This document shows positions 901 to 6,370 of a stretch of 10,139 nt of DNA, piece after piece (positions within the stretch are counted from its first letter, which is position 1; every line of letters begins with the position of its first letter). Made by a program: the position numbers and the translations under genes. The notes beneath the pieces are model-generated. The model made no database searches and was not told where the DNA came from. It saw nothing but the letters and a program-made list of their open reading frames with translations. The stretch lies in UHGV virus genome UHGV-0107762; one strand, given 5' to 3'. The DNA is from a virus.

Positions 901-1323
901 TCACCAATAATATGAATTCCTTCTGTGCCACCAATAAAGCAGACCGTATCCGACGATAAGAATCCCGAAGAACATCAGAGACATTCCCCAGCCAGTTCCA
1001 TACCACGAAACCATATCATCGAAAACCAGCCCACCCGTTTCACGAACTCCGGCAGCTTCCTTAAGAATTGGCTTGAATATCGGAATCAGAAGGGCGATCG
1101 CCAGTGGAGCACCCCAGCGAACAAGACCAGTTTCCATTTTGATACCGAAAAAGATCCCCGCACCGACAACAAGCAGCCAGACTATCAGGCCAGGCGCAGT
1201 TTCCAGTGCTGTTTGCCATTCAACATCGAAAGTTTTCATTAGCCAGGCTACAACAGCCAGGCAGAAAGCAAATACGCCTACAACAACCAGTTCAACGCCG
1301 CTTGTTCCGTTATTTCTACTCAT
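901..1323 (-). CDS. Hypothetical small integral membrane protein (about 4 TM helices)
   Basis: 140-aa ORF with four hydrophobic stretches (LVVVGVFAFCLAVVAWL, GLIVWLLVVGAGIFFGI, GAPLAIALLIPIF, GMSLMFFGILIVGYGLLYWW). SD-like AGGA sits 8 nt upstream of ATG 1323. The overlapping + strand ORFs (925..1242, 1073..1363) look non-coding by composition. Confidence 0.55.
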   Translation of the reverse strand: MSRNNGTSGVELVVVGVFAFCLAVVAWLMKTFDVEWQTALETAPGLIVWLLVVGAGIFFGIKMETGLVRWGAPLAIALLIPIFKPILKEAAGVRETGGLVFDDMVSWYGTGWGMSLMFFGILIVGYGLLYWWHRRNSYYW

Positions 1324-1361
1324 CCTTTTGATCCTTTGTTACTGTTCAAAATTCGCACAAT

Positions 1362-1394
1362 AAAAAACGTGCAGTGTTGGTAATACTGCACGTT
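1362..1394 (-). terminator. Putative rho-independent terminator for the minus-strand 60-aa gene
   Basis: Perfect inverted repeat AACGTGCAGT / ACTGCACGTT (1366-1375 / 1385-1394) with a 9-nt loop. On the minus strand it is followed by a run of six T (complement of the A-run at 1362-1367). Lies 18 nt downstream of the stop of ORF 1412..1594. Confidence 0.5.
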
Positions 1395-1411
1395 TGTACC
1401 ATTCGTGGTAC

Positions 1412-1594
1412 TTAATCCTTTTGTTTGGCAGACATGAGATCTTCTGCTGCATCTTTAGAGTAGTTATCAATCAGATAACCTAAAATCTCTGTCCATGTAA
1501 TTGTTTTTCCTAGTTTTACACTGGCATTTATAGCCAGTCGTTCTAGTTTCATTTTTCTTTCTTCCGTCACGTTATAAGTCGTGCGCTTTGCCAT
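1412..1594 (-). CDS. Putative ribbon-helix-helix (CopG/Arc/MetJ-like) transcriptional regulator, candidate phage repressor
   Basis: 60-aa ORF MAKRTTYNVTEERKMKLERLAINASVKLGKTITWTEILGYLIDNY. The N-terminal beta-strand with alternating residues, helix, G-x-T turn and second helix follow the RHH pattern (compared with CopG from memory). Transcribed divergently from gII, analogous to rstR/rstA in CTXphi. Confidence 0.5.
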   Translation of the reverse strand: MAKRTTYNVTEERKMKLERLAINASVKLGKTITWTEILGYLIDNYSKDAAEDLMSAKQKD

Positions 1595-1620
1595 TTTTTA
1601 CGCTCGTTCAATGCAATATT

Positions 1621-1723
1621 TGAAGTGAGTATACATGCTCATGAACTCATATCATCCAATCCTCTTGAACTCACTAGCTCACTGGTGTAATGTTAAAACA
1701 CTAATGAACTACTGAACTCATGT
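1621..1723. promoter_or_regulatory. Candidate operator/promoter region between the divergent regulator and gII: repeated TGAACT(C/A) motifs plus a putative sigma70 promoter
   Basis: TGAACTCA at 1642-1649, 1666-1673 and 1713-1720, and TGAACTA at 1704-1710. AGTGAGT (1624-1630) is the inverted copy of ACTCACT (1669-1675). Possible -35 TTGAAC (1665-1670) and -10 TAATGT (1688-1693) with a 17-nt spacer, so one repeat overlaps the -35. Confidence 0.4.
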
Positions 1724-1763
1724 GTTAGTAAGTCGTCATTTTTGCAATTTTGAGGATTTATTC

Positions 1764-2816
1764 GTGATCGATTGGCTTACCGGGATTTTCCCTTGCACAC
1801 ACAAACCGCTTCCGGCGGGGAGTGTTGTCAGCGTTGATGCTGACGGTGCAATTGAGTGGGAAACCGTTAAGCGACTGACTGTTCGCGGTTCGCATGAAGC
1901 AACGATGAAAGTACGATCGATAGGATCTAATGGCGAAGGTAAAGCGACACATTTGTACATTGATGGTAATCCTTCCAAGTTTCTGCAGGGGCATTCTGTT
2001 GTTGGGTCGGATGATATACAAGGGCTCATGTTGACGGTCTATGCCAGGATTTTATCCTTATTGAATATTCCTCATGATTTAGCGTCTTATAAAGCCGTTA
2101 TGGCAGGTCAGTATAAAATTTCACGTATTGACATTAATTACATGTATTCATTATCTACGCTGGAAAATGTCAGATCATGGCTTTATGCCGCCGAATTTAA
2201 AGCTAAAACACGCCATGGTCGCGCATGTGGGAAAGGCGGTACAGTTTATTTAGGTAAAAACTCCCGTCGATGGAGTCTGAAATTTTATTCAAAATATGAT
2301 GAACACGTTTCTGGTAAAAAAGGGCACCAGATAGCCGAAGAGTTTGTACGAGCCGGGTTACTGGACTGGACGAAAGATAAATTACGTATTGAATTAACAT
2401 TAAGAACAACTGAGCTTATTGATTTAAATTTAACGCTTGGCGCTAACTGGAATATGAAAACACCACGTCAATTATTCTCTGAATATGTAGGGAGAATAGA
2501 AATGAATCAGAATGCTATTTTAAGTGATGAAAAAATAACGAAACTGCCAAGAAAAATACAGTCAACTTATTTACTTTGGAAACAAGGGGCTAACATGAAA
2601 GAAATGTTACCTCATAACACTTTTTATCGCCATAGAAGAGAATTGCTTTCGTTCGGTATCGATATTAATTTCTATTGTGATTCACCAGACTCTAATAACG
2701 TTGTTCCGCTAATAAGAACGCTGGAAGCCAAGCCAGCGGAAATCCCCTTATGGATTTATGAGAAAGGTTTTATTTTCGATTACAACCGTATTTCGCACGC
2801 CAGTAGCTGGCATTAA
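1764..2816 (+). CDS. gII: Replication initiation protein pII (rolling-circle nickase) of an Ff-like filamentous phage
   Basis: Translation shares blocks with M13 pII recalled from memory: N-terminal MID..., KFLQGHSVVGSDD vs KVLQGHNVFGTTD, KISRID vs TISRID, NNVVPL identical. Preferred start is GTG 1764 (SD GAGGA 7 nt upstream, gives MIDWL... like M13 MIDML...); the track ORF starts at an in-frame GTG 1722. About 350 aa, shorter than M13 pII. Confidence 0.9.
   Translation: MIDWLTGIFPCTHKPLPAGSVVSVDADGAIEWETVKRLTVRGSHEATMKVRSIGSNGEGKATHLYIDGNPSKFLQGHSVVGSDDIQGLMLTVYARILSLLNIPHDLASYKAVMAGQYKISRIDINYMYSLSTLENVRSWLYAAEFKAKTRHGRACGKGGTVYLGKNSRRWSLKFYSKYDEHVSGKKGHQIAEEFVRAGLLDWTKDKLRIELTLRTTELIDLNLTLGANWNMKTPRQLFSEYVGRIEMNQNAILSDEKITKLPRKIQSTYLLWKQGANMKEMLPHNTFYRHRRELLSFGIDINFYCDSPDSNNVVPLIRTLEAKPAEIPLWIYEKGFIFDYNRISHASSWH
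2502..2816 (+). CDS. gX: pX, in-frame internal restart within gII (replication regulator)
   Basis: In-frame ATG at 2502 preceded by GGGAGA. The product begins MNQNAILSDEKI..., matching the position and start of M13 pX (MNIYDD...). 104 aa. Confidence 0.6.
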   Translation: MNQNAILSDEKITKLPRKIQSTYLLWKQGANMKEMLPHNTFYRHRRELLSFGIDINFYCDSPDSNNVVPLIRTLEAKPAEIPLWIYEKGFIFDYNRISHASSWH

Positions 2817-4927: not shown

Positions 4928-5268
4928 TGCCTTTATTATTAGGTATTCCTGCATTGTTGCGTTTTCTTATTGGTCTTGTTCCTTTGTTTATTGGCTATGT
5001 GGCGAGTTTTTTAGCTCGACTTGCTACCAGAACAGGATTAATCGCCTTTGCATTGGTCGCATTAATTACAACAACTGTTACGCTTTTAATGCAGTACCTT
5101 GCTGAGGTCATGTATAACGGTTTACCTGCTGATTTCTCCCATTTAATGGCGTCTGTATTGCCTGACCATTTTCAGGCGTGTGTTAACGTTATTATGGTTA
5201 CTCGTATCAGTGTTTTTGTTTTCGATTTAAAACAAAAATTTCTTGATTATGCAAACAGGGTGATTTAA
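4927..5268 (+). CDS. gVI: Minor coat protein pVI
   Basis: [17 protein letters not shown]... matches M13 pVI MPVLLGIPLLLRFLGFL...; also VFDLKQK vs IFDVKQK. ATG 4927 overlaps the gIII TGA (TGATG). The track ORF begins one codon earlier at GTG 4924. Confidence 0.9.
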   Translation: MPLLLGIPALLRFLIGLVPLFIGYVASFLARLATRTGLIAFALVALITTTVTLLMQYLAEVMYNGLPADFSHLMASVLPDHFQACVNVIMVTRISVFVFDLKQKFLDYANRVI

Positions 5269-6363
5269 ATGGCGGTTTATGTAGTAACAGGCAAATTAGG
5301 CTCAGGCAAGACACTTGTTAGTGTTTCCAGAATACAGGAAAGACTTGCTAAGGGTTGTCCTGTTGCCACTAATCTTGATCTTAAATTGCATAATATGCCT
5401 ATGGTTGGGCGTTATGCGAAAAAAACGCGCGTTATTCGCATTCCTGACAAGCCTTCATTAAATGATTTACTTGCTATTGGTATTGGGAATACATCTTACG
5501 ATGAATCCCGTAATGGCCTCCTTGTACTTGATGAATGTGGTACTTGGTTTAATTCCCGCTCATGGGGTGATAAAGACAGACAACCTGTTATTGACTGGTT
5601 TTTACATGCCAGAAAATTAGGCTGGGATATTATATTTTTGATTCAGGATATTTCGATAATGGATAAGCAAGCTCGTCTGGCGCTTGCTGAGCATGTTGTT
5701 TATTGTCGCCGTTCAGATAAATTAAACATTCCTTTTGTTGGCTCCATTATGAATTTGGTTTCAGGGGCGAGATTTTCTTTACCAAAGGTACACTTTGGCA
5801 TTGTCAAATATGGTGATAATGTTAATTCAATCACTGTTGATAAATGGATATATACAGGAAAATCTCTTTATTCTGCTTACAATACCAAACAAGCGTTCAC
5901 AGATAATTATCCTCATGGCGCATTTTCGCTTTTGCCACCATTTATCACGCACGGTCAATTTTCTGTTCACAGAGGATTTAATTATTATATGCGCCTCACT
6001 AAAATTTATTTTCGCAAATCGAACCGTCTTATATTAATGCTTTCTTTTTTGGCGCTGGGGCTTGCGTTTGGTTTCTGGCTCCAGTCTGGAAAGAATGTTG
6101 ATGAAATCTCAGCTATTAAATCTGCTTATGCTGAACAGGCGAGGGCGGTAACGCCTGATTCGTCCAGTGACTTACCCCGACTTTCTATTAATTCTTTTTC
6201 ACAACTTGGCTTTGACGTTTCCGTTACGTTTGTTGATGCAAAAGGTATGAAATATCAGTATTTTGATTTGATTAAAGATGGTTATTCCGTTGATATTAAA
6301 GATGCCTGTCGTGTTGTTATTAGAAAAGGCCGTTATTTACAGACTGTTACCTGTCAGGAGTAA
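5269..6363 (+). CDS. gI: Assembly protein pI (Zot-like morphogenesis ATPase)
   Basis: MAVYVVTGKLGSGKTLVSV (Walker A) is near-identical to M13 pI MAVYFVTGKLGSGKTLVSV. Further long matches include LLVLDECGTWFNSRSW, DWFLHARKLGWDIIFL and ALAEHVVYCRR. ATG follows the gVI stop directly. Confidence 0.93.
   Translation: MAVYVVTGKLGSGKTLVSVSRIQERLAKGCPVATNLDLKLHNMPMVGRYAKKTRVIRIPDKPSLNDLLAIGIGNTSYDESRNGLLVLDECGTWFNSRSWGDKDRQPVIDWFLHARKLGWDIIFLIQDISIMDKQARLALAEHVVYCRRSDKLNIPFVGSIMNLVSGARFSLPKVHFGIVKYGDNVNSITVDKWIYTGKSLYSAYNTKQAFTDNYPHGAFSLLPPFITHGQFSVHRGFNYYMRLTKIYFRKSNRLILMLSFLALGLAFGFWLQSGKNVDEISAIKSAYAEQARAVTPDSSSDLPRLSINSFSQLGFDVSVTFVDAKGMKYQYFDLIKDGYSVDIKDACRVVIRKGRYLQTVTCQE
5989..6363 (+). CDS. 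gXI: pXI, in-frame internal restart within gI
   Basis: In-frame ATG at codon 241 of gI gives MRLTKIYFRKSNRL..., which parallels M13 pXI MKLTKIYLKKFSRVL. 124 aa with one predicted TM segment. Confidence 0.55.
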   Translation: MRLTKIYFRKSNRLILMLSFLALGLAFGFWLQSGKNVDEISAIKSAYAEQARAVTPDSSSDLPRLSINSFSQLGFDVSVTFVDAKGMKYQYFDLIKDGYSVDIKDACRVVIRKGRYLQTVTCQE

Positions 6364-6370
6364 TATTATT

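Follow-up and report, generated by a model that had tools for sequence, protein, structure and literature searches.

The 60-residue protein encoded divergently from the replication initiator gene gII of an E. coli filamentous prophage is, from its predicted fold and genomic setting, probably a ribbon-helix-helix (RHH) repressor, which would bind four short boxes lying over two divergent promoters. The window (the whole stretch of DNA analysed, 10,139 nucleotides of the UHGV virus genome UHGV-0107762) is a dif-integrated filamentous prophage of the CUS-1/YpfPhi kind. Extraintestinal E. coli, Salmonella, Klebsiella and Y. pestis often carry prophages of the CUS-1/YpfPhi and UPphi types, whose effects on fitness are measurable. 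The arrangement described here bears on what holds prophage replication low and on which phages superinfect; the proposed operators, together with the candidate arrangement of promoters and the candidate origin, make the question of replication level and superinfection directly testable. The in silico analysis resolved selection on the gene, the RHH fold, synteny, box conservation, co-variation of the boxes with the regulator strand, and cassette swapping; that the protein binds and with what stoichiometry, in which direction it regulates, and where the promoters and the nick lie, we infer.

The prophage and its putative 60-residue regulator

The window contains gII, gV, gVII, gVIII, gIII, gVI, gI (Zot) and gIV (secretin). 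Its closest matches are prophages in many E. coli genomes, including that of UM146, with 99% identity, and in other genomes such prophages stand in tandem, repeating about every 8.49 kb. An exact E. coli dif site (Table 1) delimits the prophage on the right; homology to most other genomes stops there. Integration at dif and tandem copies are both features of YpfPhi/CUS-1, the phage kind described by Derbise and Carniel (PMC4266046). A tyrosine integrase gene (8566-10089) lies outside the phage and adjoins the prophage in only two of 5426 genomes.

Several other segments of the prophage deserve description. The non-coding segment 8013-8118, which contains two long imperfect hairpins (single-stranded DNA fold z = -4.6), is among only five segments common to the window and the otherwise IKe-like UPphi prophage of UTI89 (86% identity), and is a candidate minus-strand origin or other single-stranded DNA signal. 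An Rfam scan of the whole window gave no RNA family. The cargo proximal to attL varies: the window has, on the minus strand (50-834), a 'mobilome CxxCx(11)CxxC' protein (TIGR04402, with a faint SLATT-like match) and a 77-residue open reading frame (ORF), while in strain 1368KP the slot (L002, 3041-4112) holds a PD-(D/E)XK nuclease and a DUF6953 protein. These cargo genes may be of a defence type. Between the cargo and the origin hairpin, ORF 901-1323 (minus strand) encodes a predicted membrane protein of 140 residues (phrog_4174); even UPphi-type phages, which otherwise have little in common with the window, retain it at 92% nucleotide identity, and it is therefore probably part of the replication/origin module.

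Table 1. Positions in the window of the regulator cassette, its neighbouring elements and the dif site.
Feature	Position	Strand	Sequence and remarks
Hairpin, candidate plus-strand origin (nick)	1365-1395	+	AAACGTGCAGTGTT-GGT-AATACTGCACGTTT; inverted repeat, 14-bp stem
Second palindrome	1396-1411		GTACCA-TTCG-TGGTAC (GTACCATTCGTGGTAC); abuts the regulator stop codon
Regulator ORF	1412-1594	-	60 residues, ATG start; WP_001335098.1 (RefSeq hypothetical protein), phrog_2503
Regulator promoter, predicted (sigma-70)	1628-1655	-	-35 ATGATA (1655-1650), 16-nt spacer, -10 TATACT (1633-1628); 9/12 matches
Box 1	1642-1649	+	TGAACTCA; within the spacer of the regulator's own promoter, putative autoregulation site
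Box 2	1666-1673	+	TGAACTCA; overlaps the gII -35 TTGAAC (1665-1670); 24 bp (3 x 8) from box 1
gII -10, candidate	1688-1693	+	TAATGT preceded by TG, 17 nt after TTGAAC; read from the sequence
Boxes 3 and 4	1705-1712, 1713-1720	+	TGAACTAC, TGAACTCA; tandem, 8-bp period, about +5 to +20, downstream of the candidate gII -10
gII	1764-2816	+	replication initiator, Phage_CRI + G2P_X_C; GTG start, GAGG at 1752-1755
dif site	8405-8432		exact 28-bp E. coli dif, GGTGCGCATAATGTATATTATGTTAAAT; right prophage end

A reading of the letters alone (the sequence-only reading) had pointed to a 60-residue gene divergent from gII, and such a gene is indeed present, separated from gII by a spacer of 169 bp. Compared with five relatives, it has a dN/dS of 0.05-0.08, the synonymous sites being almost saturated, and by this substitution pattern the ORF is a real gene under strong purifying selection. 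The protein matches phrog_2503, a family of unknown function, over its full length (residues 1-60, E = 3.6e-34), and a profile search places 329 protein clusters in the regulator family.

An AlphaFold2 model of the protein (from 52 sequences, mean pLDDT 93) consists of an extended amino-terminus (residues 1-10) followed by two alpha-helices (residues 11-28 and 34-59); in this model, which is of a monomer, the amino-terminal segment is extended and does not form a strand. The order and size of these elements are those of the RHH topology, in which an amino-terminal strand, helix A and helix B occupy about 45-55 residues. At the amino-terminus of helix B, the G-x-S/T/N turn of RHH proteins is found as G29-K30-T31, with the glycine kept in most family members. 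The best structural matches of the model are RHH DNA binders; a Foldseek search gave no significant match. The family profile has a weak match (E = 0.005) to ParG, an RHH protein, which coincides with the strand, helix A and helix B and is the sole link to RHH proteins at the sequence level. Searches of Pfam and NCBIfam and a single-sequence search of the PDB with the 60-residue protein gave no match, including none to a curated RHH family. The RHH-like character proposed by the sequence-only reading was recovered by the helices, the turn and the ParG profile, while Foldseek, Pfam and NCBIfam were silent. RHH proteins are obligate dimers, in which the paired strands make up a ribbon that reads the DNA. 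They have short repeated or pseudo-palindromic units, recognised through strand residues, as target DNA, and four near-palindromic 8-bp boxes, to which binding is predicted, are present next to the gene. The RHH fold is accepted for the protein, with a ribbon that would form in the dimer.

Boxes and predicted promoters in the spacer

The 169-bp spacer had been read as carrying at least four direct copies and one inverted copy of a TGAACT(C/A) motif, one of them overlapping a plausible gII -35 element. The four direct copies are the boxes of Table 1, and box 2 does lie over the TTGAAC hexamer; the inverted copy is only partial, being GTTCA at 1606-1610 (on the opposite strand, TGAACG), and relatives do not keep it. 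TGAACTMA has five matches in the whole window against 0.79 expected, a count reached in none of 200 shuffles. Bare TGAACT, with 11 matches against 6.3 expected, is not enriched over the window; the signal is one of clustering, with four copies within 79 bp. The box is an 8-bp near-palindrome, TGA-AC-TCA, the orientation of which flips among relatives from TGAACTCA to TGAGTTCA (centre AC to GT) with the palindromic outer bases kept, so that it matters little whether a copy is direct or inverted. When six diverged spacers are aligned (overall column identity about 63%), the columns without variation coincide with the boxes and the promoter hexamers, and all six spacers share TTGAACTCA unchanged.

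The -10 hexamer of the predicted regulator promoter is conserved in relatives. For gII, TTGAAC and a TAnnnT -10 hexamer at a distance of 17 nt (18 nt in L076) are conserved in all six aligned relatives, together with the TG preceding the -10; a promoter scan scored this candidate below threshold (7/12 against the consensus, a weak promoter).

In the proposed mechanism, dimers of the 60-residue protein would bind TGA(AC/GT)TCA boxes, one dimer per box, and would cooperate across tandem or phased boxes in the way of MetJ and omega. A dimer on box 2 would cover the gII -35, those on boxes 3 and 4 would sit right after its -10, and one on box 1, inside the spacer of the divergent regulator promoter, would lead to autoregulation; gII repression and regulator autoregulation are both proposed because the boxes are positioned on both promoters. 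Occupied boxes would lower transcription from gII to gV, thereby reducing replication and phage output, and the regulator acting in trans would confer immunity to superinfection by phages with the same cassette. The cassette sits between the probable plus-strand origin and gII and is swapped as one unit. Of the lysogeny or replication switch suggested by the sequence-only reading, control of gII by the regulator is supported, but the term lysogeny switch overstates the case: as integration goes through dif/XerCD, the element would act as a throttle on gII expression and probably as an immunity determinant.

Cassette exchange and the candidate plus-strand origin

A homologue of the regulator faces the Rep gene in nearly every locus with enough flanking sequence (about 25 distinct relatives), the exception being If1, which has an IS element. 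This synteny spans phages of Enterobacterales, Vibrio, Pasteurellaceae-like hosts and Aeromonas, with Rep types that are mutually unrelated. The prophages of UTI89 and ERP001 have a pII that is 86% identical to that of the window and a left flank (window 1200-1422) that is 91-95% identical. Between exactly these breakpoints, the regulator stop and the gII start, they contain an unrelated HTH_3/cI-type repressor of 148-150 residues and a 167-171-bp spacer without TGAACT. Regulator and spacer, divergent from rep, are thus swapped as a cassette, and in CTXphi rstR/ig-2 is likewise replaced as a unit.

Each spacer has its own repeated 8-mer, which follows the amino-terminal strand of the regulator rather than the Rep type. 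Conservation of the repeats in related elements, the lack of which would have counted against the sequence-only reading, is observed, and it goes with the regulator class, not with Rep. Regulators with a YNV strand (39-92% identical) occur beside three Rep clusters, window-type, If1-type and RstA-type; compared with the window pII, If1-type Reps are 21-25% identical and RstA-type Reps have no detectable similarity. The five closer YNV regulators (60-92% identical) have boxes of the TGAACTCA type whose placement is constant: the first is some 45 nt away from where the regulator starts, the next 24 nt beyond it (giving TTGAAC), and a tandem group is at about 110-125 nt. For the more distant YNV regulator, that of L007 (39% identical), the spacer keeps ATGAA(C/T) repeats. 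The spacer of Dulem virus 53, unalignable and beside a regulator only 39% identical, has five of these repeats. The density of TGAAC is 1.5-4.5 per 100 bp in YNV spacers against 0-0.76 in 20 others (Mann-Whitney p = 3e-5), and GAACTC occurs 19 times in seven YNV spacers against none in 19 others (26 distinct loci), although related cassettes share ancestry, so that these counts are not fully independent and the statistics overstate independence. Across Rep clusters, YNV is paired with ATGAAC/GAACTC boxes, KYTxLRV with ATACAT/TATGCA and also TGTATGCA, and DTxVR with GCATGC/CATGCG.

These pairings suggest a broader reading, to which we give about even chances: phrog_2503 would be a large family of RHH immunity repressors, carried in plug-in cassettes of a regulator and its box array that reach from the origin to rep, in at least four unrelated Rep lineages (window-type, If1-type, Ff-type pII and RstA), with a readable code between strand and box. 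If true, the correspondence of strand and box would amount to a small natural set of RHH specificity variants, and inovirus immunity groups would be predictable from sequence alone.

The hairpin next to the regulator gene behaves differently from the boxes. In agreement with the sequence-only reading, which had recognised no Ff nick sequence, none is present in the window even when three mismatches are allowed; that reading had left the origin either different or outside the window, and it is different from that of Ff but probably inside, at 1365-1411. The candidate there is the hairpin 1365-1395 (single-stranded DNA fold z = -5.05), beside the ORF. Window-type pII goes with a hairpin GTGCAGT...GTAATACTGCAC in all five loci, including one with an HTH cassette and one with a 48% identical pII and another regulator class. 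If1-type pII goes with GTTCGGGGTTCTGTGACACCCGAAC (eleven loci) and Ff-type pII, 42-43% identical to that of M13, with GTGGACTCTCTTTAATAGTCCAC and a CTCTTGT palindrome, almost an M13 core origin. The RstA type has CCCCCGTCTAGTATTACGGGGG in Ig-1 of CTXphi, the region nicked by RstA (PMC8265649). Because the hairpin at this position tracks the Rep cluster irrespective of the neighbouring regulator, 1365-1411 is, from these comparisons, probably the plus-strand origin of this phage, though not Ff-like in sequence. The layout is then origin, regulator cassette and gII.

The second palindrome takes the position of the pII-binding palindrome in the M13 core origin, and the layout of nick hairpin and palindrome resembles that of the M13/f1 core origin; the sequence differs (GTGCAGTGTTGGTAATACTGCAC instead of GTCCACGTTCTTTAATAGTGGAC), and Ff phages lack a regulator gene between origin and gII. 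In relatives, the stem of the second palindrome has compensatory substitutions in both arms, showing that it is conserved as a structure and not as a sequence. When the second palindrome was compared at nine loci (L071, L074, L076, L027, L043, L055, L007, L033 and L036), it followed neither the Rep cluster nor the regulator class. In E. coli cM8a (L014, about 2060-2190; pII 68% identical), two origin-type hairpins stand in series after the regulator, the first of If1 type (GTTCGGGAGTTCTGTGACACCCGAAC) and the second of window type.

Read on the minus strand, the stem at 1365-1395 runs into TTTATT, and on account of this T-run the hairpin is assigned as the intrinsic terminator of the regulator. 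A simple terminator scan did not flag it, the stem having one mismatch, and flagged instead a weak plus-strand site in the ORF, which was disregarded. As the hairpin doubles as a terminator, regulator transcription and origin firing could be coupled.

The different behaviour of boxes and hairpin bears on what the boxes are. Ff phages have their plus-strand origin upstream of gII, with repeated pII-binding sequences, and the window has no Ff-type nick sequence elsewhere; the TGAACTCA repeats might accordingly be pII-binding repeats of an f1-like origin, and the small ORF incidental. Such repeats would follow Rep and adjoin an Ff nick sequence, and these do neither: phages with 86-90% identical pII use three unrelated spacers, two of them without TGAACT, the same boxes occur beside Reps of only 21-25% identity or of RstA type, and it is another element, the hairpin, that tracks the Rep cluster. 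We consider pII-binding repeats hardly credible. Since the boxes follow the regulator strand, and the swap loses them despite 86% identity in pII, they are best explained as operators belonging to the regulator. That they are instead sites of a host factor, for instance of the RovA/SlyA family, with the ORF associated by mere linkage, is very improbable. RovA, a host regulator of Y. pestis, does bind the promoter region of YPO2274 (gII) in YpfPhi and represses YPO2274-2279 (PMC4266046). However, the box sequence follows the amino-terminal strand across Vibrio, Aeromonas and oral-bacteria hosts and is constant for YNV regulators in different phages, a pattern that a single host factor would not give.

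Granted that the boxes belong to the regulator, its action might be of another kind. An origin or relaxosome accessory (resembling TraY, TraM or ParG) or an antitoxin, rather than a gII repressor, is decidedly unlikely, given that the boxes lie on two divergent promoters, away from the hairpin, that the regulator and box pair is independent of both Rep and hairpin class, that the slot holds cI/Xre-type repressors in sister phages, and that a terminator hairpin follows the regulator gene. The antitoxin reading was rejected, since phages that carry the HTH cassette retain the next gene, ORF 901-1323, too, so that it is not a cognate toxin. Activation of gII by the protein bound at the boxes, or a two-way switch, in place of simple repression is unlikely. 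The sign of regulation is read only from the box positions relative to predicted promoters, themselves weak, and boxes overlapping a poor -35 can serve activation of the class II type. On the other hand, boxes 3 and 4 follow the candidate -10, where a bound protein would repress, the slot houses repressors in CTXphi and cI-like HTH proteins in the sister phages, and resident YpfPhi gives partial protection against superinfection (PMC4266046). Repression of gII by the RHH protein is the reading that we prefer.

Relation to RstR and to other RHH systems

The cassette can be regarded, by analogy, as an rstR/ig-2-type module built from a different fold. As in CTXphi, a small regulator is divergent from the replication gene, the short spacer between them contains operators and the promoters of both genes, phages whose Rep is nearly the same exchange regulator and spacer together, and the origin is just past the 3' end of the regulator gene (Ig-1 in CTXphi, PMC8265649). 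Unlike here, the El Tor RstR is a 112-residue HTH_3 protein with no detectable relation to the regulator, and the Rep of the window is pII/Phage_CRI, not RstA. Kinship with canonical RstR (the El Tor, classical and Calcutta repressors) was rejected: RstR-ET matches HTH_3 (E = 5e-16), and its hhalign probability against the regulator family is 0.4%. P16 of phage PM2, to which the 'CTX-I RstR' type has been related in print, likewise belongs to the HTH proteins and is unrelated to the regulator family. Searches with tblastn matched the 'environmental RstR' of CTXphi (40.7% identity), an RstR-like protein of Vibrio phage VAI1, several inoviruses from saliva and Vibrio, and an unannotated ORF of If1. 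The parallel with rstR drawn by the sequence-only reading consequently stands for the slot and for the homology to environmental RstR, but not for the canonical HTH protein. As canonical RstR and PM2 P16 are unrelated to it and environmental RstR is homologous, the regulator is RstR-like only by position and through one minor allele.

In YpfPhi, YPO2273 has been described as an RstR homologue at the same position with a role awaiting experimental test, and the spacer as 'believed to be involved in transcription initiation' (PMC4266046). The regulator ORF is probably the counterpart of YPO2273; this identity we infer, because an exact-sequence look-up of the regulator gave no Yersinia entry, and a narrow-alignment profile search of genome contigs found 12 loci, none from Y. 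pestis. The RstR-likeness of this kind of gene is already published as an idea (PMC4266046). In the literature that was accessible, no description was found of the RHH fold, the boxes, the correspondence of strand and box, the cassette breakpoints or the origin hairpin.

Among RHH systems, MetJ with its 8-bp met boxes and omega of pSM19035 with its 7-bp heptads are the most comparable: small RHH proteins on arrays of short near-palindromic units in either orientation, single or in tandem with a period equal to the unit length, as with the 8-bp tandem of boxes 3 and 4 and with boxes 1 and 2, which are 24 bp (3 x 8) apart. Neither has a sequence relationship with the regulator. CopG of pMV158, whose gene shares a transcript with repB and whose target is one 13-bp element, is similar in being an RHH repressor that sets Rep levels. 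Compared with CopG and with Arc and Mnt of phage P22, the regulator differs in being divergent from its target and in having four boxes.

Two further occurrences of the regulator were noticed. On a contig from a 'Candidatus Nanosynbacter' bin (L059, JARKOR010000214.1), almost certainly a binning contaminant, the regulator recurs between the same flanks and with 100% identity to its E. coli counterpart. In If1 (L003, NC_001954), an unannotated homologue (58% identical) is encoded in the 'major intergenic region' (5119-5322, minus strand). An IS200/IS605-type element (5311-7131; TnpA at 5388-5831, TnpB being the annotated 'ORF348') has inserted precisely where this ORF has its 5' end and separates it from its promoter, its operators and gII ('ORF320'); relatives of If1 in IMG/VR without the IS have a normal 178-bp spacer. 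As the IS cuts the regulator off from its promoter and operators, If1 may be a derepressed mutant.
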